Position numbers and translations under genes: made by a program. 54,316 nucleotides of DNA from a virus. Taxonomy: Duplodnaviria > Caudoviricetes. Each line of letters starts with the position of its first letter. Position 1 is the stretch's first letter. The notes under the pieces are model-generated. The model had not been told where the DNA came from. It saw only the letters and a list, made by a program, of their open reading frames with translations, and ran no database searches. Below are positions 28,547 to 54,316 of this stretch, piece after piece. The stretch lies in the IMG/VR virus record IMGVR_UViG_3300029258_005835, positions 1 through 54,316 of that record; one strand, given 5' to 3'.

Positions 28547-30007
28547 GTGAACACCAACACCAAGTTGACTCTCACGAGGCTACTGCTGGCTGTCGTCGTA
28601 CTGGCGACAGTTCTCGCTTTTGTCGCCTCGGGCGCCGTCGCTCATGCAGCCGACGACCCACCCGAGTTGTATGAGCATATCAACACAGGCGGCGATGGAA
28701 ACAGCCCGCGCATCGCCGTCGGCAACTATACGGCGCAGAAGTTCACATCCGATGACGAGGCTCACTCCGTCACCAACATCCGGTTGCCCCTGATGAGAGT
28801 CGGAGACCCCGAGTACGTGACGCTGGAACTGACCACCGCCACCTCCGGCAACGTCTCGACTGGGGTCGTGATCGCTGATGTAACGATAACGACCGTTCTG
28901 ATCCCGACCGACGACTATGCATGGATCGACTTCGATGTGAGTGATTCCGGCGCGTCGCTGGACGGCAACACGAGCTACGTCATTGTACTCAGCGCTCCGT
29001 ACGGCAACCTCACGAATGACTACATCCTCTGGCAATCGGACGTGGGAGGCGACGGTGACGATGACACAGTGGGGTCTCACTCCACGAATGCAGGGGTCAC
29101 GTGGACTCTCGACACACCGACCGACTACCTGTTCGAGATATGGGGCAGCGGGTCTCTGATTCTCTACGGTGCAAACGTCTTCTCTGACTACATCGAGGAC
29201 GACGACTGGATCATCGTCATTGAGTACGAGAACACGTACCCGCCCTACTACCCGTCCGAGACCGTGGCGTCGTACTTCTTTTTCCAGCTGCTCGATCTCG
29301 ACGGCAACATCACAGCGGAGACCAACGTCCGTATGTGGGAGCACCGACCGGGAAGCATCTACCTGAACGCCGATGAGACGTCCATCTTGGAGTGGGGGTC
29401 CGCATACACCGTGCGGATGATCGGGAACTTTGGCACCGAGCCGTACGTTGACTACGTACTGACCCCGCCCGACTGGCGCGGGCAGGAGCTGACTCTGCTG
29501 GACGACTGGGTCATCGCGCTAGCCCACGAGATAGCAGACGAAGAGGATGAACTCCTGACCGAGTTCGTCGCCGACTCGGGGGAGGTCCTGAACAGTCGTG
29601 GGCAGACCATATTCGCTATCGGCATCCCCTATCTGGGCACGGTGCGGCCCGACCTGATGGAGATGGCCGTGCTGTCCCCGATGCCAACTGATAAGCCCAG
29701 CTTCTCCGTCACGGAGACAGATATCGAGACCGAGCTGGGTACGGAGCTTACGGGTGTGCTTGACGACGGTCGGACGTACATCGGGGTCGAGGACACCGAG
29801 ACTATGGGTGGGATCGTGGTCATGGGAGTGTGCGGCGCAGCACTGGCCGTATCCGCCGTGTTCGGCCATCTGCTCGTCGGCGTCGCACTCAGCTACGTCG
29901 CGTTGATTGCGGCGACTGTCGTAGGGGCCGTGGACTGGGTGTACCTCGGCATCGTGACGTTCGCGATAGCCGTCGTGTGGGTCTATATTCATTTCAGTAA
30001 TAGGTAG
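28547..30007 (+). CDS. Exported beta-rich protein with C-terminal multi-TM anchor
   Basis: Signal peptide ending AHA|ADD; YTAQKFT...DYLFEIW jelly-roll-like domain; about 3 C-terminal TMs. Confidence 0.8.
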   Translation: MNTNTKLTLTRLLLAVVVLATVLAFVASGAVAHAADDPPELYEHINTGGDGNSPRIAVGNYTAQKFTSDDEAHSVTNIRLPLMRVGDPEYVTLELTTATSGNVSTGVVIADVTITTVLIPTDDYAWIDFDVSDSGASLDGNTSYVIVLSAPYGNLTNDYILWQSDVGGDGDDDTVGSHSTNAGVTWTLDTPTDYLFEIWGSGSLILYGANVFSDYIEDDDWIIVIEYENTYPPYYPSETVASYFFFQLLDLDGNITAETNVRMWEHRPGSIYLNADETSILEWGSAYTVRMIGNFGTEPYVDYVLTPPDWRGQELTLLDDWVIALAHEIADEEDELLTEFVADSGEVLNSRGQTIFAIGIPYLGTVRPDLMEMAVLSPMPTDKPSFSVTETDIETELGTELTGVLDDGRTYIGVEDTETMGGIVVMGVCGAALAVSAVFGHLLVGVALSYVALIAATVVGAVDWVYLGIVTFAIAVVWVYIHFSNR

Positions 30008-30011
30008 TGGT

Positions 30012-30374
30012 ATGAGCGAGCGGATAGTTGGGAGAAAGGACAACGGGCTGCTGTGGGTGGCGATGCTGCTGACGCTCCTCGTCGCGGCTGATTTCATCAC
30101 GACGTATCTTTGCCTGACCGCTGGCAAGGGTCTCGTCGAGACGGGGATCGTGGCTCGTCATGTTGTTGACTGGGGTGGGTTGTCCGGCCTCGCCTTGCTC
30201 GATATGGTGGTGGTGTTGCTTCTGGTAGGTGCTGCGTCTCATGCGAAGGGTGTGTGCAGTCGGAGGGGAGAGCATGGCAAGGGTGAATGGGCCGCGCGGT
30301 TGACGTTGTACCCCTACATGATCGCCGTCGGTTACGCTGTCTTCAATAACGCCGGGTGGTTGCTGGTCGGATGA
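30012..30374 (+). CDS. DUF5658-like membrane protein
   Basis: ADFITTYLCLTAGKGLVETG...VFNN pattern, 3 TMs. Confidence 0.65.
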   Translation: MSERIVGRKDNGLLWVAMLLTLLVAADFITTYLCLTAGKGLVETGIVARHVVDWGGLSGLALLDMVVVLLLVGAASHAKGVCSRRGEHGKGEWAARLTLYPYMIAVGYAVFNNAGWLLVG

Positions 30375-32788
30375 AGAAGTTTATTCTAGTGCTGTTGCTC
30401 ACTGTTCTGGCGTCTGTTCTGCTGCCGGTGAGCGCGTGGGCGCAGACATCCACGATAGACACCGATGTGGGGGATATAGACACAGCACTAGACGATACAT
30501 ACCAGACTCGATCGTTCTATGCTTCTGGCCTTCATTGGTTCTTCTGGGTGGATACTGACGACGACCAAGCTAGATATAGCACATCTGCCGATCTTACGGC
30601 AGGATCGTGGGCTGCTGCTGTGAATCTAATTGATGTCGAATATGGGAATCGGCTCTCAGTATGGTATGACGAAGGCACTAACACAGTCCACCTTGCCGCT
30701 GGTGATAAATCTGAATCGGATGCCTACTATCGTATGGGCACACCGGAGGTAGATGGGGCAATTACTTGGGCAGATAACTGGGATTACGTGTGTGAAGCAT
30801 ATTACCCTATCCATATCATTACAGACTCAAATGGCTATCCGTTTCTCTCTGCTGGCAAAACTGTTTACCGATCAACGACACGGGACGGGACATTTACATC
30901 AGACGGAGCACCATATGTATTTACGGGTGATAGTGGGGCTGGGTATCCTGTTTTGGTGCCCCTGACGAGTGGCAAAGTCGCAGCGGTTACCACTGATGGC
31001 GCCATCTATGATCTTTTCATAACTCGTTGGGATGGGTTTAACTGGAGTGCTGAGAAGGAACTTGATGATACCTATCCTCTCAGTGACGTGGCGGCGATCA
31101 ATGTGGACGACGATGTCTATATTGTGCTTAAACGAACCACTGGTGGCGGTGCTGCTGACCGCATTGCGATGGTCAAATACACGTACGGCAGCAATTCGTT
31201 TGGCAGTATCTTCTACGTCTACAATAACGATATCGGTAGTCATAACGACCCCACAGTCACCAAAGACACCAATGATGACATCTACATCCTCTGGCCTAAT
31301 TACAATGCGCCAGCAGCGCAGAGCGACATCATCTACTACCGTGTCTACGACGTGTCTGAGGATGATGGCGAGAACTCCCTCAGTGATACGGTTGAGTTTG
31401 TGGACGAATCTGTGCTCGATGGACTCCCCGCGGCGTGCCAGGGAATTCACTGTGACTACGATAGTGATGGATTCCTCAAAGTGTACTACCCGGCTGATGC
31501 AGCGAGAGCAAAGGTCAAGGGTGAATCGCTGCTGGATGTTGACACCCTGATTCCAGCTACTGTAACCGAGACTTCTGCACGGCTTCGCGGCGAAATAGTA
31601 ATGCTTGGCCTCGGGAGCGCTTCCGCTCAGGGATTCGAGTACCGCGAAGAGGGTGGTGCTACGTCCACCGAGACGGATAACGGCAGCTTCGGGCCGGGAG
31701 TATTCAACTACGACCTCTCCGGCCTCTCCGAGGGAATAACTTATCAGTACCGCGCGTTCGCCACGGATGCTACGGGAACCGTGTATGGTGAGTGGGTTGA
31801 GTTCCAGACGTCCGGCGAGGCTGAAGGCGGCGAGGGCGGCGACGCACCGGGAGCAAACGCCACCGCCCCTCCCGAGGTGACTACGCTTCCCGCGACGTAC
31901 GTGGCCGTCCACACAGCCCAAGTGCACGGTCGCCTAGACGACGACGGAGACGGCATCACAGCCATGCGATTCCGCTACACCGACGGCGTCACGACCAGCT
32001 ACACCCCATGGGTCTCGAACTACGCTACGGGGGACACCCACTCCGCCACCCTCACCGGACTCGACCTCGGCACAGCCTACCAGTTCCGCGTGGAAGGCCA
32101 GAACACCGAGGGCACGGACGAGGGTGCCTACCTGAACTTCACAACCTTGTCCAGTATCCAGCCACCAGGGAACGTCACAGCCTATGCGGAGGAGACCAGC
32201 ATCGTCCTGTCGTGGACGATGGGAGCAGGGTCCACCAAAACCCTGATCCGGTACAAGAAGGGCGGCTACCCGACCAGCACGACCGACGGTTCCCTCATGG
32301 GGAACGTCACGGGAGGTTCAGCCGAGCATACCGGACTGGAGAGTGGCGCGACGTACTACTATTCCCTATGGGGCGTCAGCGGCAACCTGACGTCCGCGAC
32401 GTACGCGACGGTGATGTCGACGACGATATCCGGCGTCGAAGATGAGGACCGCGACGCGCCCGACACACCAGGGCTGTGGTTCATCTCCACCGACTACACA
32501 CGCTTCAGCAACATGCCGCTGTACGACCAGATCAACGATTTCATCGCTTCGCTGGGGATGCCTCTGGGGACGGGCTGGTTCTTCGGCGCGCTGCTGATCT
32601 GTGTCGCCGTATCCCTCGCGGTGTTAGCGAAATCCAGAAACGGGACGGCGGCCCTGATCGTCTTCGCGGTAGCGCTCGCAATCAGCTGCGTCCTGCAGCT
32701 CCTCCCTATGTGGATGGTCGCGTTCGTTATTCTCGCGTTCGTAGGAGTAGGCAAGATGGCGTCTGACCAACAGAGGAGGGCATACTAG
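30371..32788 (+). CDS. Exported protein: propeller-like head, FN3 repeats, C-terminal multi-TM anchor (putative adhesin)
   Basis: Signal peptide AWA|Q; LSGLSEGITYQYRA, LTGLDLGTAYQFRV, HTGLESGATYYYSL FN3 signatures; C-terminal TMs. Confidence 0.85.
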   Translation: MKKFILVLLLTVLASVLLPVSAWAQTSTIDTDVGDIDTALDDTYQTRSFYASGLHWFFWVDTDDDQARYSTSADLTAGSWAAAVNLIDVEYGNRLSVWYDEGTNTVHLAAGDKSESDAYYRMGTPEVDGAITWADNWDYVCEAYYPIHIITDSNGYPFLSAGKTVYRSTTRDGTFTSDGAPYVFTGDSGAGYPVLVPLTSGKVAAVTTDGAIYDLFITRWDGFNWSAEKELDDTYPLSDVAAINVDDDVYIVLKRTTGGGAADRIAMVKYTYGSNSFGSIFYVYNNDIGSHNDPTVTKDTNDDIYILWPNYNAPAAQSDIIYYRVYDVSEDDGENSLSDTVEFVDESVLDGLPAACQGIHCDYDSDGFLKVYYPADAARAKVKGESLLDVDTLIPATVTETSARLRGEIVMLGLGSASAQGFEYREEGGATSTETDNGSFGPGVFNYDLSGLSEGITYQYRAFATDATGTVYGEWVEFQTSGEAEGGEGGDAPGANATAPPEVTTLPATYVAVHTAQVHGRLDDDGDGITAMRFRYTDGVTTSYTPWVSNYATGDTHSATLTGLDLGTAYQFRVEGQNTEGTDEGAYLNFTTLSSIQPPGNVTAYAEETSIVLSWTMGAGSTKTLIRYKKGGYPTSTTDGSLMGNVTGGSAEHTGLESGATYYYSLWGVSGNLTSATYATVMSTTISGVEDEDRDAPDTPGLWFISTDYTRFSNMPLYDQINDFIASLGMPLGTGWFFGALLICVAVSLAVLAKSRNGTAALIVFAVALAISCVLQLLPMWMVAFVILAFVGVGKMASDQQRRAY

Positions 32789-34809: not shown

Positions 34810-35229
34810 CTACTCGGGGTCTTTGATCCATTCCTCACCGTTCCACACCTCGCCGTACTTCGTCTTCATGACGAAGTCGAACCACAGTTCCTCGCCGGAA
34901 GCGTGGACGTCTCCATACTCAAGACACCACTGCCCGAAGTGCACCATCATCTTGCGAGCGGAGACATACTCTTCACGCACCATGTTCTGCAACTGATCTT
35001 GGCGGGGGAGCCACGTGAAACGGTCGTAGAAGCCCCGCTGGAATCTCCTCTCCTCGATGCGGAGACCGTTGAAGGGATCGTCGATAAACTGCCACTCCTT
35101 CTCGGTGAACAAAGCGGCTTGGTTCCAAGCTACCGACCACCAGACGTCGCCGCGCTTGGGCGATGGTCGGCTGCCTTGTATCTTCACAGCTTCTCTGCAC
35201 TTCTCAACATACCGTTCTGACTTGTCCAT
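34810..35229 (-). CDS. Hypothetical protein
   Basis: YVEKC...WLPRQDQLQ...WNGEEW; GGAGG RBS. Confidence 0.7.
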   Translation of the reverse strand: MDKSERYVEKCREAVKIQGSRPSPKRGDVWWSVAWNQAALFTEKEWQFIDDPFNGLRIEERRFQRGFYDRFTWLPRQDQLQNMVREEYVSARKMMVHFGQWCLEYGDVHASGEELWFDFVMKTKYGEVWNGEEWIKDPE

Positions 35230-35263
35230 TTTCGCTAACCTCCCTCGTACCCCATCTCGCAGT

Positions 35264-35422
35264 CTACTCCTTCTCCCTGCTGACTTCTCTCCATTCCGGC
35301 TCCGACGATACCTTGCCGCATCTGCGGCACACTACTGACCCTGATGACCGCATGTAGACGTACCCAGAGCCGCACTCCGGGCAGTATGGTTTCCTGCCTG
35401 TCTTTGCTTTCTGCTGCGTCAT
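35264..35422 (-). CDS. Zn-ribbon mini-protein (52 aa)
   Basis: Manual translation ...YCPECGSGYVYMRSSGSVVCRRCG...; RBS inside a 15-bp tandem duplication (35422-35451). Confidence 0.65.
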   Translation of the reverse strand: MTQQKAKTGRKPYCPECGSGYVYMRSSGSVVCRRCGKVSSEPEWREVSREKE

Positions 35423-35957
35423 TACTGTGATCCTCCTTACTGTGATCCTCCTTACTCTACCAGCCGTATTGCGCTGATGTGCTCGACTCCGGCGGACCTC
35501 ATCGTCGCTTCCACTTGGGCTTGGTTGTTACCGAAGATGTGTGTCGTCGCCGGACCTACGTCGCTTGTGTAGTCTACTTCGTAGGTGTAGACGACCGCCA
35601 TCATCTCTGTCGCGATAGCCGCCGCTCGGGTCACGGCGTTCGCGAAGGCGCGCGCCTCTTCGATGCCGACGGAGCCTATCGCAGAGTAGTCTCGCTGTCG
35701 TTTGGACGCTTTTGTTCAAGCTTCTCAGCCATCGCCCAAACCCGCGGCAGCAACCCAGCCCCAACCAACACAAACGTAACCGCTAGCCCCAGTATCACTT
35801 TCAACACCAACAACTCCATCAGCTTCACCCCTTTGGTCATCCTTACGAACGATCCAGTTTTTGTACCCGCATTCAGGGCATGGGTCCATACTGCCCACAA
35901 AGCCCTTGAATGTGTGTCCACACTTCTCGCACTTGTGCGCGACTTCCGCTAGCCAGA

Positions 35958-36212
35958 TCATGCTTCCCCCTTTGCGATAGCGGCCCTTATCTCAACCAAC
36001 AGCAACTCCTCGATAAACTCATGTTTGACAGATGCAAGAATAGCCAAGCTATGCTTACACGCCTCCAGCAGGTCGGGAGCTGCGGCGATCAGGCGGGCAT
36101 TGGCTTCGCGCCGTACATTATCAGCCACGACATTTAGTATGGGTCCACTATGAACAATGGCGTATCCGATATTAGCTGTTCCCTCGATTCCCCATGGTCC
36201 TGGTGTATGCAT
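35958..36212 (-). CDS. Phage hypothetical protein
   Basis: HTPGPW...EANARLIAAAPDLLEAC, a widespread phage motif. Confidence 0.8.
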   Translation of the reverse strand: MHTPGPWGIEGTANIGYAIVHSGPILNVVADNVRREANARLIAAAPDLLEACKHSLAILASVKHEFIEELLLVEIRAAIAKGEA

Positions 36213-36249
36213 CCTGTACTCCTTTCTCCCGGCTCATGGCCGGGGCTGG

Positions 36250-36447
36250 CTAGTGTTGGTTGGCAAGCCATTCGTCACGCTGGCGTCGCGCCTCTGCTAG
36301 GCTTCGGGCGACACAGCCAAACAGCTTGCCGTTGATATGGCGATAGTCATACTGGACTCGCATCCCACGAGCGAGAGGACTGTAATACTCCTCGTAAGAC
36401 TCTTGCCCCATTGGGCAGGTCGAGCATCCGTCGATGTCGCTTTTCAT
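36250..36447 (-). CDS. Hypothetical protein
   Basis: 65 aa, GGAGG RBS. Confidence 0.65.
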   Translation of the reverse strand: MKSDIDGCSTCPMGQESYEEYYSPLARGMRVQYDYRHINGKLFGCVARSLAEARRQRDEWLANQH

Positions 36448-36490
36448 CCTGTACCCTCCTTTTTCGTTTCAGTCCGGCTACTCAGAGAGG

Positions 36491-36688
36491 CTAGAGGCTT
36501 TGGCACGACTTCCCGACGATAGACCGTATGCGGTCGTCCCTAACATCGGCGCTGAATTCATCATCGACTATGATACCCTCGCCGTGACGCTGGAGTTCAT
36601 CTAGGAGTTCCGACCAAGTGAATCCCGTTGGGCGCTTGCGGACAATGGTTTGACCGGGAAGCGTCTGATAAGTGTACCGTGTCTCCAT
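36491..36688 (-). CDS. Hypothetical protein
   Basis: 65 aa, AGGAGG RBS. Confidence 0.6.
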   Translation of the reverse strand: METRYTYQTLPGQTIVRKRPTGFTWSELLDELQRHGEGIIVDDEFSADVRDDRIRSIVGKSCQSL

Positions 36689-36811
36689 TGTGGTTCCTCC
36701 TTTCTCTAGCTACTCGCTAAACTTGAGTGGGATTGACCCACCTGGTCCCTAGAATCTCATACTGGCCGACACCCCCGACCGGAGGGTCAGGGGCGGGAGT
36801 CAGAGGAGATT

Positions 36812-36967
36812 CTAGGGCTTTGTGGCTGCCTTAGACTCGCGGATACACTGCACACACTGTAAACTGATGACGAACTGGGGATCATCGCTCTTCGCAAGCG
36901 GGCAAGTCATCTGCGGGTGGTTGTGTATTGGGCAGACCTTTGGCTTGACCTTTGGCTCGAGTGTCAT
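36812..36967 (-). CDS. Small Cys/His protein (51 aa)
   Basis: Manual translation MTLEPKVKPKVCPIH...CVQC...; GGAGG RBS. Confidence 0.5.
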   Translation of the reverse strand: MTLEPKVKPKVCPIHNHPQMTCPLAKSDDPQFVISLQCVQCIRESKAATKP

Positions 36968-37069
36968 TTCGGCCCTCCTATTCTCACTTCAGCATCTCTG
37001 CTGACCGATGCCCCGAACTGAGTTCGGAACGCTAAGTCAGGAGTTTGAGGTACTGAGGTCAAGAGAGAT

Positions 37070-37396
37070 TCACTTCCGATATTTCCTGAGCATTCGTTTC
37101 CTAGCCGCCTCGACTCTCTTGGCGACGACTGCTTTCCTGCTCTCTTCGGTCTTGAAGTACTGAGTTGTCGACATGGCGCCGTACTCCTCGCCGTTTCTTG
37201 TAATCATGATCCAAGCGGTGAAGAGACGTCCACACGGGATATCCAGCTGATGATAGGAGCCTTCCGTCGTACGCTCCTTCGACTTGGCTGTGCCCAGCAC
37301 AACCTTGATGCCGACTGCGCGCTCCTTCTCGTCCTTGACGCCAAAGTCGATCTGCCGCCTTGATGTAGTCTCCCTGTTTGTGATGACGTGCTTCAT
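37070..37396 (-). CDS. Hypothetical protein
   Basis: 108 aa, GAGGAGG RBS. Confidence 0.7.
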   Translation of the reverse strand: MKHVITNRETTSRRQIDFGVKDEKERAVGIKVVLGTAKSKERTTEGSYHQLDIPCGRLFTAWIMITRNGEEYGAMSTTQYFKTEESRKAVVAKRVEAARKRMLRKYRK

Positions 37397-37492
37397 TGCC
37401 TTGTTTCCTCCTCGTGTACTTCAGCGCATCCCCGCTGACTGGCTCCCCCAAAGTTGCCCTTGGGGGAGATGGGTCAGGAGAGATTCAGTATG

Positions 37493-37678
37493 TTAGGTTG
37501 GCCGACGAAACTCGATTAGTGCCAGGATGCCAACTACGATAAGGGCTACGGTGATCACGCCGACGGCCCACCACTTCGGCAGAAACACTAGGGACAGTAT
37601 GCTGACAGTCCCAGCGGCTACCACGAGTCCAAGACCCTGTAGGAAATACTTGTCCATACCTTTCCTAGGTGCCTTCAT
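37493..37678 (-). CDS. Small two-TM membrane protein
   Basis: Two hydrophobic helices. Confidence 0.65.
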   Translation of the reverse strand: MKAPRKGMDKYFLQGLGLVVAAGTVSILSLVFLPKWWAVGVITVALIVVGILALIEFRRPT

Positions 37679-37879: not shown

Positions 37880-37882
37880 TTC

Positions 37883-44644: not shown

Positions 44645-47600
44645 ATGACTCAAGCAGAGCACAACGCACGAGAGCAAGAGGCACGGCACAAACTAGGTAT
44701 CCTTGGCCGTATTATCCTCGCTCTCGTTGTTTTTGTTGTCACTCTTCCTATCTCTATCTCGCTCGAAACGCATGTTATCCCCTATTTGCCGTGGTTGGGG
44801 AGTGGAGAGCAGAATGTCGCTCGTGCAGAACCCGACGTATCTGATTTCACGTACTCGCATATCGTCACGGTCAAGAACAACTCAGGAGCAGCAGTCACAA
44901 ATCCCATACTGCGAATCCCTGTAATCCCCTACGAGGCTATTGATGTATCGACGTGGACAGTCACACTCGCTGATTCTAATTCTCATACCTACAACACCTG
45001 TATCCCTATCCGTGTGGCAGAGATGGCGAATGAGACCCTGACGAATCATGAAGTCAAGGTCGGGCCAATTGATACTGAGTGGCTCATAAATAACAGTTGG
45101 GCCTCGGCAGATGGGAATGAGTGCGTTTTTGCTACAACCAATGATAGCACGATAGCTGCCTCAGACCTGATGCGCTGGTATTGGGACGGGCAATCCGATG
45201 GCCCTTATGGATGGGATGAGCCTGATACCTACTTCTGGGTTGAAGGCAACCTGACTGCATGGGGTAATGACACATGGTACATGCTGATTGACCCTGACCT
45301 TGGCTCCATCGTACCAGGAGCAGGGACGACGAAGTGCACAAGTGGCATTTTTGATTTCCACGACCCTATGGACGATGGGGATAACTGGGATACAGACGAT
45401 GGCTCCGAGTCATACGCTGCGGGTATCTGCACAATCAGGGATGGCACAGACCCGGAGCAGATTACCTCCAAATCAACCTTTGGTGAAGATCATGGGCTAC
45501 GAGCCAGGGTCAATGTCCCAAATGCAGACGGGAATGATATTCTTGAGGGTTCACAATTCGGGTTCTCGAATGATGGTCGCACTCTTGATCTTGCTTTTAT
45601 CAACCTGCAATTCGCTAATTATGACGAGGCCATAGAGTGTGACGACGCGGCTGTTACCGTGGAAGACGACCAATACCCCTATGTAGAGGGCTCCTATGCG
45701 GTCTATGACATCCAGCGGCGCGACGACCATAGTGCAGATAACAGATCGGTATGGGGCCAATTCCACTGCAATAATGTTCAATTGACCGACGCGCCAATAT
45801 GGACAAATGTACCCGACGACGCCCTTGAAGTCCTATTCTGGTCAGACGATGAGAATTTACTTATTGATTGGGTGTTTGTCTACGACTATGTTTCGCCCGA
45901 GCCGATAGTCAATATTCCCTTCATACACCACGACCCTGATACCGTCTTCCTGGCCGAAAGGTGCGAGCACTGGCCCTACGATATAGAGTTCACCAAGACG
46001 GGGAACACCTCTGAACTCTACAATCATGCTGACCGGACAACGCTCTCCTCGGAGTACGCGACTGAGTTCTATGTTGAGTACATCGGCACGATCAATAACG
46101 GGGCTTCAGCCAACGTAACCATTCACTACGGCAACGCTGCCCAGTCGAGTGCATCAGCCTATCGGGATGCCTCCAAAGTCTTCGACGGCACAGGCGCGTT
46201 CTGGGATGACTTTGAAGGCGTCATACTATGGGCCAATACATCAGGGACGTGGGGGCTGTCAGACCAGCAGAGAGCAGAGGTTTTCGACTATCACCTGATG
46301 AACCAGGACGATGACTTATCATCTATCTGGGCGGGTAGCCCTACATGGACTTATGACGGAGATGAGTGGATGCTGCCGTTCGTAGGCTCGTGGGCGGGGA
46401 CAACCAGTAACAATCAAGGGGACCCCCAGTGGATGATACCGTGGGAGAATGTCCTATATAAGAAAATTGGGAGCCAGTGGTATAGGTGGGGATATGTTCT
46501 GACAGGCGAATATGACGAGTTCAACCATGCGTCTTCGCTGGGTAGGTTTGCATGGTATGGCGACGACTCACACATGGGCAACTCTAGTTGGCTTTACTTC
46601 CTCCTTGGGGTTACTACTGTCGAAGATGGAGATGGTGCCTCATTCCTTTTCTATTCAGAGGACGGTGGTAAACACTGGAAAGTCCTGAACGGAGGTGCGC
46701 CCTACGTTGATCTCACCTGTACTGATGCTGTTGATGTGCGGGGCCGTTTTGCCAGCTTGGTCTACGACAATGGCTATTGGTTCCAAGGCTACACAAATGC
46801 TGTGGATAGTTGGGACCCGAGTTATCTCTATGCAAACGATACGGCTTTTGAGGATATGCTGTACGACCGAGGCACGATCGTTCCCGCTGACGTATGGACA
46901 GACGGAGGGGAGATAATAAACACAGGCGTGGGTGAGGGGATAGAGGAGTTTTACTGGTATCAAAAAGCAGGCGGGAACTGGACACTCCAAGCCGAAGTGA
47001 TAATAGATGACGATTTGGTTTATTCAGATTGTGATGGCGATGACTTTGGAATAACCATGGACTCAACCGACTGGTCGGCGCTGGCAAATATGAAAGACCA
47101 TGACGACATCTATCAATGGTCTGCCGTTGACAGAAATACCCCCCACTCCGTTGTAGGTGGGGATAGCCCCAATATGGTCTTTGGTGGGGCGCAGTCACCT
47201 ATGGAAAGGACCACACAGCTTGCCTTTGCACACAGTAGCAGTTTTGCTGGCGATGATTGGACTCTCCAGAACATTGACAAGGAACGATGTCAGGCTGCCG
47301 ATGCAGCAGCGTGGCAAACTTCAACTGTCACAGGAGGGAACTACTCAGCAGGGGAGATCATTGCTGAGTGCACAGTCCACACAACTGGCGGAGATGGCTA
47401 CGCAGGCATCGTGTGGCGCTACGAGGACGACGATAATTTCTGCGCGTGGGTTGTGAATTCCATAAACGACACGATGTCTTATGGTATTCAGTCAGGCGGT
47501 GTCTGGAGTGGGTTGACCAGCTATGACCCCGGCGAGGAGATATGGCTTGGCGAGAACTACCGCCTCGCAGTGGAGTTTGATGGGGCCACAACGACGCTCA

Positions 47601-50600
47601 AATACTCAAAGATCGGCTGGGAGTGGACAACAGCGTACAGTGACATTGACCTATCAGATGGCAACGTGGCGAACTATGGCAGCGCGGGAACGATCACCTA
47701 TGGCACGTATGGCCTGTTTGACGACTTCCGCATATCACCGAATGCGCTTGGTGATTTGGAGATCACCGACCAGGGAATGCTCACCGTCACGACTGAGGCA
47801 GCGACAGGAGTAGGTACAACATCGGCCACCCTCGTTGGCAACATCACAGCAGGGACAGCGGCAGCGATAGGCTTCGCGTGGGGTACAGCCTCATGCGGTG
47901 ATCCCGGCGATACAGCACCGGGAGATTCGTCCTACAACCTTGATAGCCGGACCAACGTAGATGAGTGTGCCACAGGGCAATACACCCACGGTGCAACTGG
48001 GTTACCACAAGGATCAACAATCTACTACCGCTTCGCTGCACAGTCAGAGGCGTTCCCCGGCACATGGTACTGGGGAGATGAGGAATCGTTCAGCACTGCT
48101 GGAACACCAACCTGTGTAACGGACACCGCGACAAATGTAGACGAGACATCGGCTACCTTGCGAGGAAACATCACCGCAGATGAGACAGTTGCCGAGATGC
48201 AAGCGCTCGGCTACACCGTCGTCAGCACCGGCCCCAGTAATTATGGTGTTGGTGATTACTCCGACGCAATCAGTGGACTCAACGAGGGCACCTGTTATTA
48301 TGCCAGATTTGGTGCCAACAATACGGTCGGCTTTGGTTGGGGCAGTGAAGTTACTCTTGTCACATTGCCCCGTCCACCAAACACCTGCACCGTTTCGAGC
48401 TATGACGAAGACTCAATCTCTCTGACGTGGAATGCTGGTAACGGCTCAGGCGATACCGTTATCCGCTATGGAACATCATGCCCAGCCAATTATACAGACG
48501 GTTCCAGCGGCTATGTCGGCAACGGAACATCCTGCACTATCAGCGGTCTCTCGGAAGGGACTCAATACTGCTTCCGAGAGTGGAGCAACACTACATCTTG
48601 TAGCGAGACGGTATGGTCGAGCACCTACTGCGAAATCACGCAGTATACTTTGCCGGGGAATATCACCAATCTCGATGCCGATAATCCAAGTGCGACGACG
48701 ATTGACTTAGAGTGGACTGTTGGCAGCGGAGCCAATAGCACTGTTGTGCGTGGAAAGCAGGGTTCATACCCTACCGATAGAACCGATGGTGTTGAAGTCT
48801 ACAATAGCACCGGGAACTCGACAACCCACACCGGGCTTGGCTGCGGAGAGTCATGGTACTACCGCGCGTGGTCGTATGATGCCGAGTCAGGATACTACAG
48901 CGCCGGATACAGCGAGGATGCCAACGCGACTTCAGCCTGCAACGCTCCTGCCGTTGTCACGACTTCTGCGACGTCAGTCAATGTAACCTCAGCGACGCTG
49001 AACGGGAATATCACCGACACCGGGAACAGCGACGTCACGAACTACGCATTCGTGTGGGGGAACTCGTCGCAAGCCGCACCTGTGGGAGCGCCGCCGGGAA
49101 ACTATGATGATTCGTGGACCTCCGACGCTGGTAACTATACCGTCGGTGACTACAACCATGGGGCACCGGGACTCAACGAGGGTGACTGCTATCATTTCAG
49201 GATTGGCGCCAACAACTCCGGCGGCTGGACGTGGGGCGACGAACTCACGTTCGTGACGCTGCCGTACCCGCCACACACTTGCTCGGCTACTCTCGCTGAC
49301 CTCACCGACACCTTCATGCCGTTCACGTGGGTCAAAGGATCAGGAGCCAACGAAACCGTGTGGCGATATGATACCGTAGCCAACGGCTGCCCAGCCAACG
49401 TCACTGATGGACTGGATGCTGGGACGTACAGCGGGACGAGCGGGAACATCAGCGGCTTGGCTCCGTCTACCGAGTACTGCGTGTGGGGACAGTGCAACAC
49501 TACTGCCTGCAACGAGACGGTGTGGAGCGACGGGCATTGCGACTTCAACCAGTATACACGCCCGGGGAACTGCACCAATTTCGACGCAGACAACCCGTCC
49601 GATACCACGCTTGACATCGAGTGGACAGTAGGGTTGGGATCGGACTACACGATGGTCAGGTATCGCACCGACACCTACCCGACGGACGAGGCGGACGGGA
49701 CGCAAGCGTACTACGACACGGGGAACTCGACGACGCTGACGTTGGACTGTAATACGACCTACTATTTCCGCGCGTGGGCGTACTATACCGTGTCAGGGTT
49801 ATACGCGGCTGGCTACTGCCAAGATGGGAATGCAACACTGACCTGCCAGAACTGCACGGTCGTCACCAATCCCGCGACCGACGTCGAGGAAACGAGCGCG
49901 ACGCTCAACGGCAATCTCACCGATGTCGGCTCGGGGAACGCTACCGACTGGGGATTCGTATGGTCCACGTCGAGCCATGGCGCGCCCGGTAACGTCGCTC
50001 CCGGTGCGTCAGGGTACGAGCAGTCCAGCATTGCCAGCGGCAACCATGGAGTCGGGACGTTCAGCGGCGCTACTGGTGATGTTCTGAGTGAAGGGGACTG
50101 CTACTACTTCAGGGCGTGGGCGAACAACACTGGGGGGTACTCGTACGGCGAGGAGAGACAGCTGTTCACGAAACCGGACGAACCGAGCGGGTGCTCCGCG
50201 ACCGACCACACCTATGACTCAGTGACGCTCTCGTGGACGAACGGGGACGGGTACGGGAACGTCACGGTGCGGTATGACACGACGTTGAACGGGTGCCCTG
50301 CCGACGAGACGGACGGGTCTCTGGGGTACTGGGGGACGGCGGCGACGACTACGGTGAGTGGGCTAGACCCGAACACGGAGTACTGCTTCCGCATCTGGAG
50401 CCATGCGGACGGATGCAACAGCACGAGCTGGTACTCCGACCTGTACTGCGAAGTCACGGAGTACACGTCACCGGGGAATGTCACTAACTGCGATGCACAC
50501 GGCCCGACGTACACCACCATCGACCTTGACTGGACGGTGGGCAACAACAGCGACATGACCCTCGTGCTGGGACGGAATGACGGGTCGTACCCCACGGGAC

Positions 50601-51856
50601 CGACAGACGGGGCAGCGACTACCGTGTACTACGGTGCGGGGAACACGACGACGCACACCGACCTGACGTGTGGTGACACGTGGCACTATGGGTTCTACGG
50701 ATACGCTGTCAATAGTGGCTATTACTCGGACGACCCGTGCCAAGATACGGAGACGGTGGTGGCGTGCATCGCTCCGACCGTGCTCAATGTGAGCGGGAAC
50801 TATACGTCCTGCTCGACTGCCAGCATTGTCGGCAATGTTACCGGACTCGGGGGCACCAACGTCGTCCGGCGCGGCGTCACGTACGACACGATTTGCAGGG
50901 CTGATCCGGGGAACGGGACGGCTCCAGCGGCGAGTGCGTGGACGTGGAACGAGATGGCGACAGGAGACTGGGGCGTCGGTACGTACACTACGTCCCTGAC
51001 TGGACTGACAGAGAGTACGACCTACTACTGGATGGCTGTTGTTTATAACGGGTTCTACTGGGACTACTCGGGGGTATGCGGCAACTTCACGACTCCGGCG
51101 TGCCCTGAGTGTGTTGAGCCGGGGAACCTGACGGCCACGGCGATCAACGATACCAAGATCGAGCTGGAGTGGTCGGGCGACACGATCAACAACAGCATCA
51201 TACGGATGGGGCTGGACGAGGCGCCCAGTGGGCCTACTCAGGGTAATCCGGTGTTCGATGACGTCGGCAATTCGACAGCTTACTACTACGATATGGACTG
51301 CTGCTTCGATGGTGATATCTACTTCTCACTCTGGACGGACTGTGGAAACGGGACGTACAAGGGGCCATCGACAGCTTCAGTCACAGGAGGTGCGGGAGTG
51401 ACTGCAATAGGGATAGGGCTGAACAGCCTCGGTATGATTCTGCTAGCGGTGCTGCTGACCGTCGCGATGTTCCATACACGGAACAAGCTGCTCGGATTCC
51501 CGTGCCTAATCTTCTGGGCGATCCTCGGCGGGTACTTCTACCAGCAGTCGGAGGCCACGTGGGATATCAACTACCTGCTCTTTTTCGCCTCGATGGGCAT
51601 GGCGATCTTCACAGGGTACGCGGCGTACGCGCTGCGGAAGTCTGACCTGTCCGGCCCGAATGCGGACGAGGGTGCGTTCATCGACGAGGGCGGAGGTAGT
51701 GGTGGTAAGCGGTACGTGGAGGACAAAGAGTCGGATGAGTACATTGACGAGGGAGAATCGAAGCCGAGTGCACGCACGAGAGACCTGCGGGCGCGTGCTG
51801 CACGGAGGCGGTCGGGGAACGTGAGCAGGAAGCCGTCGTGGGACGAGTTCAAGTAG
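44645..51856 (+). CDS. Giant membrane-anchored surface or adhesin protein (DUF2341-like, ConA-like, propeller, Cys-rich FN3 stalk, C-terminal TMs)
   Basis: About 2400 aa; N-terminal TM/signal; repeated SATLxGNIT, SGLxxxTxYC and GSYPT..TDG units; three C-terminal TMs. Confidence 0.88.
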   Translation: MTQAEHNAREQEARHKLGILGRIILALVVFVVTLPISISLETHVIPYLPWLGSGEQNVARAEPDVSDFTYSHIVTVKNNSGAAVTNPILRIPVIPYEAIDVSTWTVTLADSNSHTYNTCIPIRVAEMANETLTNHEVKVGPIDTEWLINNSWASADGNECVFATTNDSTIAASDLMRWYWDGQSDGPYGWDEPDTYFWVEGNLTAWGNDTWYMLIDPDLGSIVPGAGTTKCTSGIFDFHDPMDDGDNWDTDDGSESYAAGICTIRDGTDPEQITSKSTFGEDHGLRARVNVPNADGNDILEGSQFGFSNDGRTLDLAFINLQFANYDEAIECDDAAVTVEDDQYPYVEGSYAVYDIQRRDDHSADNRSVWGQFHCNNVQLTDAPIWTNVPDDALEVLFWSDDENLLIDWVFVYDYVSPEPIVNIPFIHHDPDTVFLAERCEHWPYDIEFTKTGNTSELYNHADRTTLSSEYATEFYVEYIGTINNGASANVTIHYGNAAQSSASAYRDASKVFDGTGAFWDDFEGVILWANTSGTWGLSDQQRAEVFDYHLMNQDDDLSSIWAGSPTWTYDGDEWMLPFVGSWAGTTSNNQGDPQWMIPWENVLYKKIGSQWYRWGYVLTGEYDEFNHASSLGRFAWYGDDSHMGNSSWLYFLLGVTTVEDGDGASFLFYSEDGGKHWKVLNGGAPYVDLTCTDAVDVRGRFASLVYDNGYWFQGYTNAVDSWDPSYLYANDTAFEDMLYDRGTIVPADVWTDGGEIINTGVGEGIEEFYWYQKAGGNWTLQAEVIIDDDLVYSDCDGDDFGITMDSTDWSALANMKDHDDIYQWSAVDRNTPHSVVGGDSPNMVFGGAQSPMERTTQLAFAHSSSFAGDDWTLQNIDKERCQAADAAAWQTSTVTGGNYSAGEIIAECTVHTTGGDGYAGIVWRYEDDDNFCAWVVNSINDTMSYGIQSGGVWSGLTSYDPGEEIWLGENYRLAVEFDGATTTLKYSKIGWEWTTAYSDIDLSDGNVANYGSAGTITYGTYGLFDDFRISPNALGDLEITDQGMLTVTTEAATGVGTTSATLVGNITAGTAAAIGFAWGTASCGDPGDTAPGDSSYNLDSRTNVDECATGQYTHGATGLPQGSTIYYRFAAQSEAFPGTWYWGDEESFSTAGTPTCVTDTATNVDETSATLRGNITADETVAEMQALGYTVVSTGPSNYGVGDYSDAISGLNEGTCYYARFGANNTVGFGWGSEVTLVTLPRPPNTCTVSSYDEDSISLTWNAGNGSGDTVIRYGTSCPANYTDGSSGYVGNGTSCTISGLSEGTQYCFREWSNTTSCSETVWSSTYCEITQYTLPGNITNLDADNPSATTIDLEWTVGSGANSTVVRGKQGSYPTDRTDGVEVYNSTGNSTTHTGLGCGESWYYRAWSYDAESGYYSAGYSEDANATSACNAPAVVTTSATSVNVTSATLNGNITDTGNSDVTNYAFVWGNSSQAAPVGAPPGNYDDSWTSDAGNYTVGDYNHGAPGLNEGDCYHFRIGANNSGGWTWGDELTFVTLPYPPHTCSATLADLTDTFMPFTWVKGSGANETVWRYDTVANGCPANVTDGLDAGTYSGTSGNISGLAPSTEYCVWGQCNTTACNETVWSDGHCDFNQYTRPGNCTNFDADNPSDTTLDIEWTVGLGSDYTMVRYRTDTYPTDEADGTQAYYDTGNSTTLTLDCNTTYYFRAWAYYTVSGLYAAGYCQDGNATLTCQNCTVVTNPATDVEETSATLNGNLTDVGSGNATDWGFVWSTSSHGAPGNVAPGASGYEQSSIASGNHGVGTFSGATGDVLSEGDCYYFRAWANNTGGYSYGEERQLFTKPDEPSGCSATDHTYDSVTLSWTNGDGYGNVTVRYDTTLNGCPADETDGSLGYWGTAATTTVSGLDPNTEYCFRIWSHADGCNSTSWYSDLYCEVTEYTSPGNVTNCDAHGPTYTTIDLDWTVGNNSDMTLVLGRNDGSYPTGPTDGAATTVYYGAGNTTTHTDLTCGDTWHYGFYGYAVNSGYYSDDPCQDTETVVACIAPTVLNVSGNYTSCSTASIVGNVTGLGGTNVVRRGVTYDTICRADPGNGTAPAASAWTWNEMATGDWGVGTYTTSLTGLTESTTYYWMAVVYNGFYWDYSGVCGNFTTPACPECVEPGNLTATAINDTKIELEWSGDTINNSIIRMGLDEAPSGPTQGNPVFDDVGNSTAYYYDMDCCFDGDIYFSLWTDCGNGTYKGPSTASVTGGAGVTAIGIGLNSLGMILLAVLLTVAMFHTRNKLLGFPCLIFWAILGGYFYQQSEATWDINYLLFFASMGMAIFTGYAAYALRKSDLSGPNADEGAFIDEGGGSGGKRYVEDKESDEYIDEGESKPSARTRDLRARAARRRSGNVSRKPSWDEFK

Positions 51857-52157: not shown

Positions 52158-52602
52158 GTTGAAGAGGCTGCGAAGGGAACGGGTGGCCGCAGGACTGGAG
52201 GAGCCGATGCGGGAGAAGGTGGCCAAGGTCGCGGGTAGTCGCGTTGGGCGGAAAGCACTGGGAATGGTCAGCCGCAAGGGAGTGGTGGACCAGTTGACTA
52301 GCGGTACTACTGAGGAGGTAGTCAGGAACGCGGACGAACTGGTCACGACGGGCACGGTCGGTGATCGCGCAATGAAGGACGCGATCATGAAGAAGGCTCC
52401 CCGTGAGATGGACAAGGGGATCAGGAAGTTCCAGAAGGGAGGGAAGGAGATCACGGTGGACGCTCTGTGCCACGAGGTGAAGACCACACCGGGATTTCTG
52501 GAGATGTGCGAGAGGGTCGGGTTGCCCTTGGAGTGGTTCGAGAATCTGGCGCGAGAGCGGATGGCCGCGAAGGGGATAGAGGAGCAGCAACAGGAGGGGT
52601 GA
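52150..52602 (+). CDS. Hypothetical protein
   Basis: GTG start after a GGGG RBS. Confidence 0.65.
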   Translation: MGRLKRLRRERVAAGLEEPMREKVAKVAGSRVGRKALGMVSRKGVVDQLTSGTTEEVVRNADELVTTGTVGDRAMKDAIMKKAPREMDKGIRKFQKGGKEITVDALCHEVKTTPGFLEMCERVGLPLEWFENLARERMAAKGIEEQQQEG

Positions 52603-53202
52603 GTGATGAAAGCCGAGTACAAGGGGGACATACTGTCGGTGCGAGCAGTCGAGGATTGCATTCGTGCAACGCGGAAGTACACGAAGGGTGTGTTTTCCCG
52701 CAAGGTCAAGCACCCGATACAGGGTGAGGACTTCCCGAGCAGGTTGCTGACGGAATACTACGAGGTGTACCCAGACACGGAAGTGAGTTGGGATATGCCT
52801 GCGGCGAAAGCGTGGGCGTGGGTCTGGGGAGACGTCACGCGCATCGACGTGCGGTTCTCGTATGACTATCGCGAGGACAAAGCACGAGTAGTCGTGTACG
52901 GTGGCGAGGAAGCTGTGCGCGAGTTGGCGTCTGGGATACCGGGGTTCGCAACTGCGTTGGTCGCGGTGGGAGCACAAGCTCCCGTTGTCGCTGCTCCGGC
53001 TGCGGATATATCTACGGTAGGCGAGGTGGAAGGGGATGGACGACCTGTCAGCGGATCGCGGAAACGCACCAGAGCCACCGGATCAGGAGCAGGTGCACGG
53101 TCAGGAGCAAACACAGGCGGCAGGAGACGGACCCAGAAAGGCCAGCCGGTGGTGGATAGCCCTGATCGGGTCGGGGCTAGCGCTGTCTCCTATCCACAAT
53201 AG
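52603..53202 (+). CDS. Hypothetical protein
   Basis: GGAGG RBS; low-complexity C-terminus overlaps the next gene. Confidence 0.6.
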   Translation: MMKAEYKGDILSVRAVEDCIRATRKYTKGVFSRKVKHPIQGEDFPSRLLTEYYEVYPDTEVSWDMPAAKAWAWVWGDVTRIDVRFSYDYREDKARVVVYGGEEAVRELASGIPGFATALVAVGAQAPVVAAPAADISTVGEVEGDGRPVSGSRKRTRATGSGAGARSGANTGGRRRTQKGQPVVDSPDRVGASAVSYPQ

Positions 53203-54316
53203 CGTTATTACCGACTGGACGACGAATGAGAAGGGGGAAACCCTCTTCTTTTTACCCGCTTTTGCCTATCTGCTGCTCCTGATGGGGTCGTGGATGTTCC
53301 TGTTGTGGAACTGGGAGCGGGTCAAAGAGGTCGGCTGGGGGAGCAGGATGATTACTGTTCCCCTTCTTGTTATCTGCGCCGCTATCGCCCTCTCCGGTAT
53401 TGCCGTCGAGGGAGGAATAGGCGACAAGATTGCTCCCTTGGGCATGGGGGCGGCGCTGTTCTCGCTGTACCTTACCGCGAGGGTCTTGGGTCGCGACCTG
53501 TTCCTTCCGCTGGCTGTCGGGGCTGCTGTTGCGTCTGGTGGGATTCTGGTGTACCAGCTGCTGTACTTCGGCGGGCCGACCGGCGGGTTCATCTTCGAGG
53601 ACAACTACGACATCGCTACGGGGTACATCCTCCTCGGTGCGGCGCTGTTGGTCGGGAGGAAGTCGTGGCAGCAGGGGCTGGCGTTCTTGGCGCTGATCGC
53701 CCTGTTCCTCTCCGGGTCCGCGGAGGCTGTGTTCGCCGTCGGTGTCGTAGGACTGGCGATGCTTGTGCGGCGCGACTGGTCGCGGAGGGCGGTTGTGCTG
53801 CTGGCTGTGTTCGCAGTCGTAGCAGTGGCTGTGTTCGCGTCTGGGTACGGGAGCGGGCTGCACAGCCTTACGGCTGGTGGGCTGACTGGAGACACGGAGC
53901 AGGCGAGCCGGACGGGGAGTGATGGTGAGGAGCTGACCCTTGCAGAGGACCGCTGGGAGCTTATCACGAACGCTATGGCCGATATCAAGCCGCTGGGAGA
54001 AGGGTACATCGTCACTGAGTTCCAGAAGGTGGACATGGTCCACAACGTGCCGCTGGTGATCGTCCAGCAGCTGGGATGGCCGGGAGTGCTGGCTGCGGCG
54101 GCATGGCTATGGGTGTCGCTCTGGTGCCTGGTGCGGTCGCGCTGGAAGTACGTCTGGATTCTGGTGCTGGCACTCAGCGTCTGGGACCACTACGTTTTCA
54201 CCCAACTGGCGCCGCTCTGGCCGATGATCGTCGGAGCGTGCTTGGTGGATACTGTGGATTCCGACCTGATATTTCGTGGGCGAGGGCTTGACAAAGGTAG
54301 TACCTTAGTAGTATAA
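53036..54316 (+). CDS. O-antigen ligase/Wzy_C-like multi-TM protein
   Basis: About 11 TMs; GGFIFEDNYD, ALFLSGS, R-W...PLGEG...HNVPLVIVQQLGWPG signature. Confidence 0.8.
   Translation: MDDLSADRGNAPEPPDQEQVHGQEQTQAAGDGPRKASRWWIALIGSGLALSPIHNSVITDWTTNEKGETLFFLPAFAYLLLLMGSWMFLLWNWERVKEVGWGSRMITVPLLVICAAIALSGIAVEGGIGDKIAPLGMGAALFSLYLTARVLGRDLFLPLAVGAAVASGGILVYQLLYFGGPTGGFIFEDNYDIATGYILLGAALLVGRKSWQQGLAFLALIALFLSGSAEAVFAVGVVGLAMLVRRDWSRRAVVLLAVFAVVAVAVFASGYGSGLHSLTAGGLTGDTEQASRTGSDGEELTLAEDRWELITNAMADIKPLGEGYIVTEFQKVDMVHNVPLVIVQQLGWPGVLAAAAWLWVSLWCLVRSRWKYVWILVLALSVWDHYVFTQLAPLWPMIVGACLVDTVDSDLIFRGRGLDKGSTLVV
54288..54316 (+). promoter_or_regulatory. Sigma70-type promoter at the window edge
   Basis: TTGACA-N18-TATAA, truncated by the window end. 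Confidence 0.6.

Follow-up and report, generated by a model that had tools for sequence, protein, structure and literature searches.

A widespread family of putative linear DNA viruses of bacteria that may assemble at the membrane from a highly constrained 61-residue protein

The window analyzed here is the entire IMG/VR virus record IMGVR_UViG_3300029258_005835, a stretch of 54,316 nucleotides (nt) that appears to belong to an undescribed family of bacterial viruses, widespread in sediment and water metagenomes, with linear DNA genomes of about 80 kb. An earlier sequence-only reading had proposed that the region from position 28547 to the right end is a tailless, spindle-virus-like morphogenetic module under bacterial expression signals. 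The bacterial, membrane-extruded part of that proposal is largely supported: the region is probably the virion-morphogenesis half of a linear double-stranded DNA (dsDNA) virus of a bacterium, assembled at the membrane and falling in no described family. The evidence centers on a spliced gene for a 61-amino acid (aa) protein, a P-loop ATPase related to M13 pI and His1 ORF16, a conserved gene order and the expression signals around the 61-aa gene. Four other IMG/VR records (G001 to G004) have PolA (61-66% identity), the ATPase (54-68%) and the module in common with the window.

The 61-aa protein is encoded in two exons on either side of a group I intron (Table 1). The splice junction was fixed from relative G003, in which the gene is uninterrupted, and the joined reading frame matches the G003 product at 61 of 61 residues while 57% of the codons are different. 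The sequence-only reading was right that the gene is spliced; the junction it chose likewise yields 61 aa, of which the first 20 match at only 17 positions. Exon 1 ends in U, its GGUGGU can pair with GCCACC at intron nucleotides 12-17, a U-G pair closes the end of P1, and the last base of the intron is G. The 3' part of the intron matches Rfam RF00028 (39679-39808; 25.6 bits, E 6.9e-4, under the gathering score of 50), and the open reading frame (ORF) inside it matches Pfam HNH_3 at E 9e-11. The 51 residues of exon 2 are 98-100% identical in G001-G004, yet 30-41 of 156 nucleotides differ; nine other genes common to the window and G003 are 47-62% identical, with 37-64% of conserved codons differing. 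The 61-aa protein gene is the most constrained of the family. Gene conversion via intron homing was considered as a cause of the identity and rejected, given that the synonymous sites have diverged as much as elsewhere. In alignment A5 an invariant polar loop separates the protein's two hydrophobic stretches, and 21 columns, the loop GTDTGS included, are invariant among 26 uninterrupted copies. It forms 206 clusters in a collection of 5.8 billion proteins. Used as a probe, it retrieved 52 metagenomic loci, 7 of which carry two or three uninterrupted copies of the gene in tandem.

The same 186-nt gene is a hot spot for group I introns, with about six split positions across relatives (loci L062-L065, L068-L071 and L074-L079, and positions 38802-39974 of the window). 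For four of the splits in relatives, after residues 13, 23, 26 and 35, the exons on either side were both identified; further exon starts lie near residues 11, 19 and 34-37. In 19 loci Rfam matched 13 group I introns, of which 10 exceed the gathering score (51.7-82 bits); L079 and L078 have three each. Many introns of the gene carry HNH ORFs, and homologues of the window's HNH ORF occur in 11 loci. A gene of this length invaded by up to three group I introns is a striking case.

Of 7223 candidates, 411 are homologues of the ATPase at E<=0.001; identity is 61-81% in the best 120, which include none with a functional name, and one homologue is sourced to 'viral metagenome'. G75, P77, G78, G80, K81 and E171, in the P-loop core (Walker A and Walker B), are invariant in 42 sequences. 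Among 1.84 billion cluster representatives the family comprises 159 clusters (50% identity, E<=1e-3), most of them about 300 aa long and lacking the C-terminal domain. An AlphaFold2 model of the window protein (pLDDT 76.2, pTM 0.70) has a disordered N-terminus, an alpha/beta core and a three-helix C-terminal domain (pLDDT >90), and hydropathy analysis found no membrane segment in it. Using hhalign, the family aligned with M13 pI at 84.2% probability (E 7.3e-6, 72 columns) and with His1 ORF16 at 86.8% (E 4.2e-6, 79 columns), and the control, PRD1 P9, reached 6.8% at Walker A only. The top PDB match of a broad family profile was 2r2a_A (E 3e-4), in an alignment that takes in Walker A, Walker B and the next motif; this entry is labeled 'Uncharacterized protein', and we take it to be the N-terminal domain of Zot. 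Pfam Zot was found in 8 of 92 aligned distant members (best E 9.2e-5), AAA in 9 and nSTAND3 in 8. The ESM Atlas neighbors of the ATPase (0.93-0.96) belong to clusters in which 22-29% of members carry Zot, which is a lead only. Calling the protein a Zot-like ATPase, as the sequence-only reading did, is apt at the profile level (pI, His1 ORF16 and 2r2a_A) but not at the level of Pfam, where the window protein has no Zot match. A search of GenBank phages found no match to the ATPase. A narrow profile (A1) gave a weak match to a HerA-type NTPase (8j4u_M, E 0.056); the HerA reading was set aside for the result of the broader profile. The membrane proteins that had been noted beside the ATPase do flank it, a 264-aa protein with a transmembrane (TM) helix at each end and a 138-aa protein with two.

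The two genes belong to a module that reads, in order, the 61-aa gene; genes for proteins of 101, 264 and 189 aa; the ATPase; variable giant adhesins with conserved anchors; and a Wzy_C-like gene. Synteny was counted in the 23 loci of at least 3 kb, and module homologues keep the same order in all 23 wherever they are present. Homologues of the 101-aa protein occur in 19 of these loci, of the 264-aa protein in 18, of the 189-aa protein and the ATPase in 14 each, of a 94-aa protein in 13, of the C-terminal anchor of a 2428-aa protein in 9, of a 199-aa protein in 5 and of the Wzy_C-like protein in 4. The start of the 189-aa gene overlaps the stop of the 264-aa gene. Searches with the 264-aa protein returned no PDB, Pfam or PHROG match, and the 189-aa alignment had 0 matches against PDB.

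A search of 50 translated window ORFs with hmmscan found no Pfam family for terminase, portal, capsid, tail, holin or endolysin at E<=0.01, and 10 proteins of the 24-43 kb region matched 0 PHROGs families. In six-frame searches of the window and the four relatives, Terminase_6N, TerL_ATPase and Phage_portal were each found in 0 of 5 records; the sole Phage_capsid match (14.3 bits) is sub-threshold and lies within the 2428-aa ORF. The lack of head-tail and lysis genes in the window, one of the first things noticed in its sequence, is upheld by these searches. Head-tail genes might have lain beyond the window, as the sequence-only reading had cautioned. No terminase, portal or HK97 gene was found in the ORFs scanned of a relative's merged 79,453-bp sequence, described below (20 large ORFs with Pfam, 10 with PHROGs, and six-frame family searches). 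All these searches used sequence profiles, which very divergent forms could escape. The results support, at the level of sequence, a virus-like replicon without detectable head-tail genes.

The first alternative to be weighed, which we judge unlikely, is a virus whose capsid escapes the profiles: either an icosahedral one with an internal membrane (PRD1-, PM2- or sphaerolipovirus-like) or a very divergent one of the head-tail type. Here the ATPase would pack a preformed shell via a membrane-anchored vertex, and the small hydrophobic proteins would be internal-membrane components. Such an arrangement would suit the HerA-type match to which profile A1 first pointed, the many small TM proteins near the ATPase, and the several conserved proteins that lack a fold assignment. 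The relative also resembles Tectiviridae in its linear genome, its terminal repeats and a polymerase-B-like gene: its 529-aa protein has motif A (YDVNSMYP) in common with PRD1 P1, a motif also present in His1 PolB. However, P9 of PRD1 aligns at 6.8% and at Walker A only, versus 84-87% for pI and His1 ORF16. No double-jelly-roll capsid candidate was found here, and neither Pfam nor PHROGs matched any of the tested ORFs to a capsid, portal or terminase family. Nor was a conserved soluble protein of capsid size found in the shared core, the largest one without an assignment (264 aa) having a TM helix at each end. An internal-membrane protein, finally, is not the kind of product whose gene one would expect to stand out above all others in constraint and in the strength of its signals.

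The form of the genome is best seen in a relative. G003 (68,001 nt) and G004 (39,369 nt) overlap by 27,917 nt at 99.98% identity and are one virus, giving a merged sequence of 79,453 nt. Positions 1-117 of G003 equal positions 11-127 of G004 in the same orientation, which places inverted repeats of 117 bp at both merged ends, and the two contigs end within 10 nt of each other. Given the inverted terminal repeats and the two contigs stopping within 10 nt, we take the merged sequence as a complete linear genome. The terminal repeat holds five copies of a GTGTAATCA-type motif, which are probably replication-origin sites. The window itself is a trimmed piece, 54 of about 82 kb, and not a whole genome, since its RNR protein is on record in an 82,297-nt contig and public contigs of two runs extend at least 10.3 kb past its right end. 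No terminal repeats were found at its own, trimmed ends. IMG/VR classes the window as 'provirus', a label also given to G001 and G002, with CheckV completeness of 38-100% for the labeled records. We rejected true-provirus status for the window: the label is in keeping with a cut made at host-like glycan genes, and physical ends are present in the relative. The labels look wrong, as the cuts adjoin host-like genes, and the family would be a case of automatic pipelines mislabeling such genomes as proviruses and cutting them. No integrase was found among the 50 Pfam-scanned window ORFs.

The element might instead be no virus at all but resemble a linear plasmid, remodeling the surface of its host or using a pilus- or secretion-like apparatus to move, with the 61-aa protein as a pilin-like subunit, the ATPase as assembly motor and the giant proteins as host adhesins. 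Conjugative pilins are small two-helix hydrophobic proteins too, and the lack of lysis genes, the large adhesins, the glycan cluster and the IMG/VR provirus label would all be in keeping with such an element. We nonetheless give this explanation little weight. The 50 Pfam-scanned ORFs include no relaxase, VirB4, VirD4 or secretin family, and the family carries genes of phage type (a UDG-exonuclease-PolA fusion, RNR, a helicase, a Sak4-like protein and a DNA methyltransferase) along with homing introns and an HNH endonuclease. The N-terminus of the 61-aa protein (alignment A5) lacks the bacterial prepilin motif, which has Glu at +5. The 'viral metagenome' source of one ATPase homologue also argues for a virus, as does the lack of any copy in 185,579 species-representative genomes.

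The evidence for a bacterial host is strong and comes from the statistics of promoters, Shine-Dalgarno sequences and hairpin-plus-T terminators around the 61-aa gene. The two best sigma-70-like sites of the window point away from each other in the intergenic region before this gene. Among 54 distinct orthologous upstream regions, TTGACA is present in 41 and TTGACA-N16-18-TAnnnT in 38 (mean 0.045 and maximum 1 in shuffles), and 48 of the 54 have a Shine-Dalgarno-like sequence. Downstream of the orthologues, a hairpin plus T-run was found by a strict test in 15 of 59 regions, versus 0.6 in shuffles. The bacterial expression signals that had been read from the window alone are strongly borne out for the 61-aa gene by this conserved promoter, Shine-Dalgarno sequence and terminators. 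A leader hairpin, GGGS...SCCC, is also found in 33 of the 54 upstream regions, between promoter and ribosome-binding site. The sole taxon label seen is bacterial, an Ignavibacteria metagenome-assembled genome on one 1,961-nt contig. An archaeal host, which would make the family a large relative of halspivirus, thaspivirus or wyrdvirus spindle viruses and would accord with a gene repertoire parallel to those of His1 and (as described) wyrdviruses, with the ERCC4-HhH nuclease and XPD-like helicase, and with the likeness of the sequon-rich surface protein to archaeal N-glycoproteins and of the 61-aa start (basic residue, Gly, hydrophobic stretch) to archaeal pilin signals, is very unlikely in view of the perfect -35 hexamer 16-18 nt from a -10 box in those 38 promoters, the second such promoter facing the other way, the terminators, the bacterial label and a PolA fused to a UDG domain.

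Under the membrane-assembled reading, the 61-aa protein would be made abundantly from its own strong promoter and would insert in the cytoplasmic membrane as a helical hairpin, with its ends inside and the loop ITGTDTGS outside, where it would serve as the chief shell or membrane component of the particle. The soluble ATPase would act with the co-transcribed 264-aa and 189-aa proteins to deliver the genome to this membrane patch, and the complex would drive extrusion or budding instead of filling a preformed head. The giant membrane-anchored fn3 proteins would be receptor-binding spikes, which the Wzy_C-like protein may glycosylate using sugars of the virus's own glycan cluster. The particle could be a spindle, a filament or pleomorphic; shape cannot be read from sequence.

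Archaeal spindle-shaped viruses provide many parallels to this gene set. His1 (AF191796) has 126-bp terminal repeats, a protein-primed polymerase, a lone two-TM capsid gene, an ORF with N- and C-terminal TM segments, anchored exported proteins and a glycosyltransferase. Wyrdviruses, as described by Medvedeva et al. [quoted passage not shown] Similar to His1 and other spindle viruses, the present family combines a linear genome, short inverted terminal repeats and a polymerase-B-like gene (in the relative) with a lone gene for a small protein of two hydrophobic helices behind a divergent promoter region, present as tandem paralogues in some members. It resembles them further in its many zinc-ribbon mini-proteins, glycosyltransferase genes and C-terminally anchored exported proteins, and in having an ORF with two terminal TM segments and a soluble ATPase related to His1 ORF16. 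Unlike them, it has bacterial host signals, a genome of about 80 kb rather than 14-30 kb, and in addition PolA, RNR, a large glycan cluster and group I introns; its 61-aa protein has no detectable likeness to the His1 and SSV1 capsid proteins, and its ATPase family is not detectably close to SSV1 B251.

Spindle-shaped viruses had so far not been observed in bacteria according to Medvedeva et al. (bioRxiv 10.1101/2021.07.29.453957), and the sequence-only reading likewise knew of no bacterial member. The latter statement is now outdated by IME1 of Dehalococcoides (Nesbo et al., bioRxiv 10.64898/2026.09.15.751708; preprint of October 2026), an element of 21-28 kb with a pI-like ATPase that the preprint associates with filamentous particles and two of whose small TM proteins structurally resemble SSV1 VP1, per its authors. 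As the preprint describes it, IME1 is, like the family studied here, a bacterial dsDNA element without head-tail hallmarks in which a pI-like ATPase stands beside several small TM proteins. The two also have HNH endonucleases and anchored adhesin-like proteins in common, and IME1 is proposed to exit by non-lytic budding or as filaments. It differs in being circular or integrated and in having a tyrosine recombinase, a serine resolvase and a primase-helicase, whereas the present family is linear at about 80 kb with terminal repeats (in the relative) and PolA, a distinction drawn from the description of IME1. A literature search found no bacterial case other than IME1. Dehalococcoidia as host is a guess, based on analogy with the IME1 preprint and one ESM Atlas cluster. 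Filamentous phages (Tubulavirales) are similar in that the ATPase aligns with M13 pI over Walker B and the next motif and that their structural proteins are small and hydrophobic. They differ in their single-stranded circular genomes of 4-11 kb and in the TM segment of pI, where this ATPase has none, and no secretin, pIII or rolling-circle gene was seen in this family.

Several results pull against a spindle-like or membrane-extruded virus. With about 60-90 aa and two hydrophobic helices as the measure, the 61-aa protein has the size and architecture of spindle-virus capsid proteins, but the homology that the sequence-only reading had suggested looking for did not appear: the capsid profiles PF25665 and phrog_11172 were each found in 0 of 5 records (window and four relatives), hhalign gave 0.3% with His1 ORF21 and 1.1% with SSV1 VP3, the alignment had 0 matches against PDB profiles, and a PHROGs hmmscan of the protein returned no spindle-capsid match. 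In the ESM Atlas, a neighbor of the protein (0.89) lies in a cluster with His1_capsid in 11% of members, a lead only. The particle role is one that we infer from size, hydrophobicity, expression signals and constraint. Of the two small hydrophobic proteins singled out at first, the 61-aa one is real and the 81-aa ORF exists and is hydrophobic, but the latter is not supported as a paralogue: hhalign detected no resemblance to the 61-aa family (probability 0.9%), and no homologue was found in the relatives. For the ATPase, Pfam Zot (PF05707) matched neither the window protein nor, in six-frame searches, any of the 5 records, and hhalign against SSV1 B251 gave 6.4%. The ATPase phylogeny that had been suggested as a check was uninformative at depth; a quickly built tree places each of the four reference ATPases outside the family on a long branch, so that a sister group cannot be named. 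The Pfam scan covered 50 window ORFs, and several small ORFs of the window and relatives lie outside it. The 264-aa and 189-aa proteins and the C-terminal domain of the giant may include a very divergent capsid fold, and three small minus-strand membrane proteins could be holins. Neither the ATPase nor the 61-aa protein has a copy in the 185,579 GTDB species-representative genomes, and the window carries the provirus class discussed above.

A bolder proposal, which we put forward only tentatively, is that the family is the first large bacterial counterpart of archaeal spindle-shaped or budding viruses: globally distributed and linear at about 80 kb, with a capsid-less, lipid-associated particle of the 61-aa hairpin protein, a loading ATPase of the pI/His1 type and a self-made glycan coat. 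If true, this virion architecture would not be specific to archaea, and would either predate the split of the two domains or have crossed between them. Nearly all known dsDNA viruses of bacteria are head-tail or icosahedral, and the family would add, beside IME1, a much larger, linear and apparently lysis-free lineage with hundreds of metagenomic members, judging by the numbers of ATPase homologues (411) and 61-aa clusters (206). It would provide a concrete and unusually constrained candidate shell protein, and would link virion assembly to a virus-encoded glycosylation pathway.

Table 1. Features of the window, in order of position
Feature	Position	Strand	Basis or remark
Proteins with basic C-terminal tail	21883-22551, 22584-22970, 24022-28056, 27951-28535, 33405-34094
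1344-aa Ala/Glu/Pro/Thr-rich giant	24022..28056	+	One central hydrophobic segment; conserved ~110-165-aa domain (aa 1136-1300), then basic tail
194-aa acidic protein	27951..28535	+	Conserved C-terminal part and basic tail; tblastn 36-42% identity, all four relatives
486-aa exported protein	28547..30007	+	Signal-like N-terminus, C-terminal multi-TM anchor; hydropathy segments 5-36, 419-485
810-aa exported fn3 protein, candidate adhesin	30356..32788	+	Pfam fn3, Pur_ac_phosph_N; hydropathy segments 1-19, 733-761, 763-803
Small hydrophobic ORFs, 111 aa and 81 aa	32788-33123, 33123-33368	+	Hydropathy; lineage-specific membrane proteins
Block of small genes	34810..38423	-	Zinc-ribbon proteins and three 61-71-aa membrane proteins; ORF list, hydropathy
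Three 61-71-aa membrane proteins	37493-37678, 37694-37879, 38208-38423	-	Hydropathy
Sigma-70-type promoter-like site of minus-strand block	38457..38486	-	TTGACA, 18 nt, TATAGT, TG before second hexamer; 11/12 consensus positions
Sigma-70-type promoter-like site of 61-aa gene	38725..38754	+	TTGACA, 18 nt, TAGAAT, TG before second hexamer; 11/12 consensus positions
Leader hairpin	about 38766-38781	+	About 35-20 nt upstream of 61-aa start codon
Exon 1 of 61-aa gene	38802..38830	+	Codons 1-9 and two bases of codon 10; comparison with intronless G003 gene
Group I intron, 987 nt	38831..39817	+	HNH_3 homing-endonuclease ORF 38968-39798 inside
Exon 2 of 61-aa gene	39818..39974	+	Stop codon included
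GC-rich, terminator-like hairpin after 61-aa gene	40037..40067	+	13-pair stem
101-aa conserved protein	40372..40677	+	Basic C-terminal tail; homologue in 4/4 relatives
264-aa conserved protein	40733..41527	+	One TM helix at each end; alignment A2, 20 sequences; hydropathy
189-aa conserved protein	41527..42096	+	Variable basic/acidic N-terminus, ~110-aa conserved core; alignment A3, 16 sequences
366-aa P-loop ATPase, pI/Zot/His1-ORF16-like	42208..43308	+	No TM segment; C-terminal three-helix domain
138-aa protein	43844..44260	+	Two TM segments, hydropathy; weak homologue in G002
94-aa conserved protein, weakly HTH-like	44244..44528	+	51-59% identical in G001-G003; phrog_142 E 4.7e-4
2428-aa surface protein, candidate receptor-binding adhesin	44570..51856	+	N-terminal TM, repeated fn3-like domains (Pfam fn3), conserved C-terminal anchor
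Conserved small genes, 93 aa (TM), 186 aa, 199 aa	51876..53202	+	tblastn to G002, G003; 3-5 metagenomic loci
426-aa polytopic membrane protein, Wzy_C-like	53036..54316	+	Pfam Wzy_C 28.4 bits, E 1.6e-6, under cut-off 31.7

The three exported proteins described from the sequence alone (486, 810 and 2428 aa) do have C-terminal hydrophobic anchors by hydropathy, and two of them have fn3 domains. The anchor of the 810-aa protein is a double TM segment, and the protein is 26% identical to a 1651-aa protein of G002; the 486-aa protein matched no family in Pfam or PHROGs and lacks a conserved counterpart in G001-G004. In the giants only the last ~125 residues are conserved in relatives, the bodies being different, a combination of variable body and conserved anchor that is expected of receptor-binding proteins. 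The 2428-aa protein contains 61 N-x-S/T sequons, versus 27.4 +/- 4.3 in 500 shuffles (z = 7.8, a value that the repeated domains inflate somewhat), an excess that may point to N-linked glycosylation, an unusual trait if the host is a bacterium. Its gene has 66 extra bases (22 codons) at 48179/48180 in two of four runs. The 1344-aa protein, for which no Pfam or PHROG family was found, has a C-terminal domain that resembles, at 39-43% identity, the terminal parts of proteins of 1809-2722 aa in G001-G003.

The glycan-ligase-like gene that had been noted at the right end is present as the Wzy_C-like gene, at a weak score that lies under the Pfam cut-off (Table 1). Its product, 52-55% identical in G002 and G003, is a candidate glycan ligase or oligosaccharyltransferase. 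In both relatives a glycan-synthesis cluster comes after the gene; in G003 the cluster consists of epimerases/dehydratases, a DegT aminotransferase, two GT4 transferases, methyltransferases and an asparagine-synthase-like gene.

The left half of the window is a replication and nucleotide module by Pfam, comprising RNR with a TSCPD domain, an XPD/DinG-like helicase, an ERCC4-HhH nuclease, an HD hydrolase and the UDG-exonuclease-PolA fusion. A UDG domain fused to PolA is a phage-type arrangement. The ERCC4-HhH (XPF-type) nuclease (14500-15276) and the XPD-like helicase (6442-8034) are conserved in the family and, to our knowledge, uncommon among bacterial viruses. Other large ORFs of the merged relative encode the DNA methyltransferase, the Sak4-like protein and the 529-aa protein with polymerase-B motif A. 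No family-B polymerase was found in the window, and the signal is confined to relatives G003 and G001 (DNA_pol_B_2 at 13-16 bits, under the cut-off; phrog_11768 at E 6e-7). In G001, PolA (22606-26427; an open frame of 1277 aa versus 907 aa) and the helicase (39874-42603; 909 aa versus 530 aa) have large in-frame insertions that are probably inteins, and intein/Hint domains occur in several RNR homologues (among the best 120 of 2059). Searches of the window found no tRNA genes and no Rfam match at gathering scores.

The minus-strand block is probably an early or regulatory operon; PHROG matches of its proteins are weak only. It includes, at 35264-36967, the CxxC zinc-ribbon mini-proteins that were recognized in the first reading. 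The 111-aa ORF, like the 81-aa one next to it, has no homologue in the four relatives. In five otherwise unrelated window proteins the C-terminus consists of a basic run and, after it, a short Gly-hydrophobic-basic tail (such as GGMRR, GGIRR, QRMR), and an RGIRR tail ends a protein of G003 (56157-56516). These tails may be a common C-terminal signal for packaging or DNA binding.

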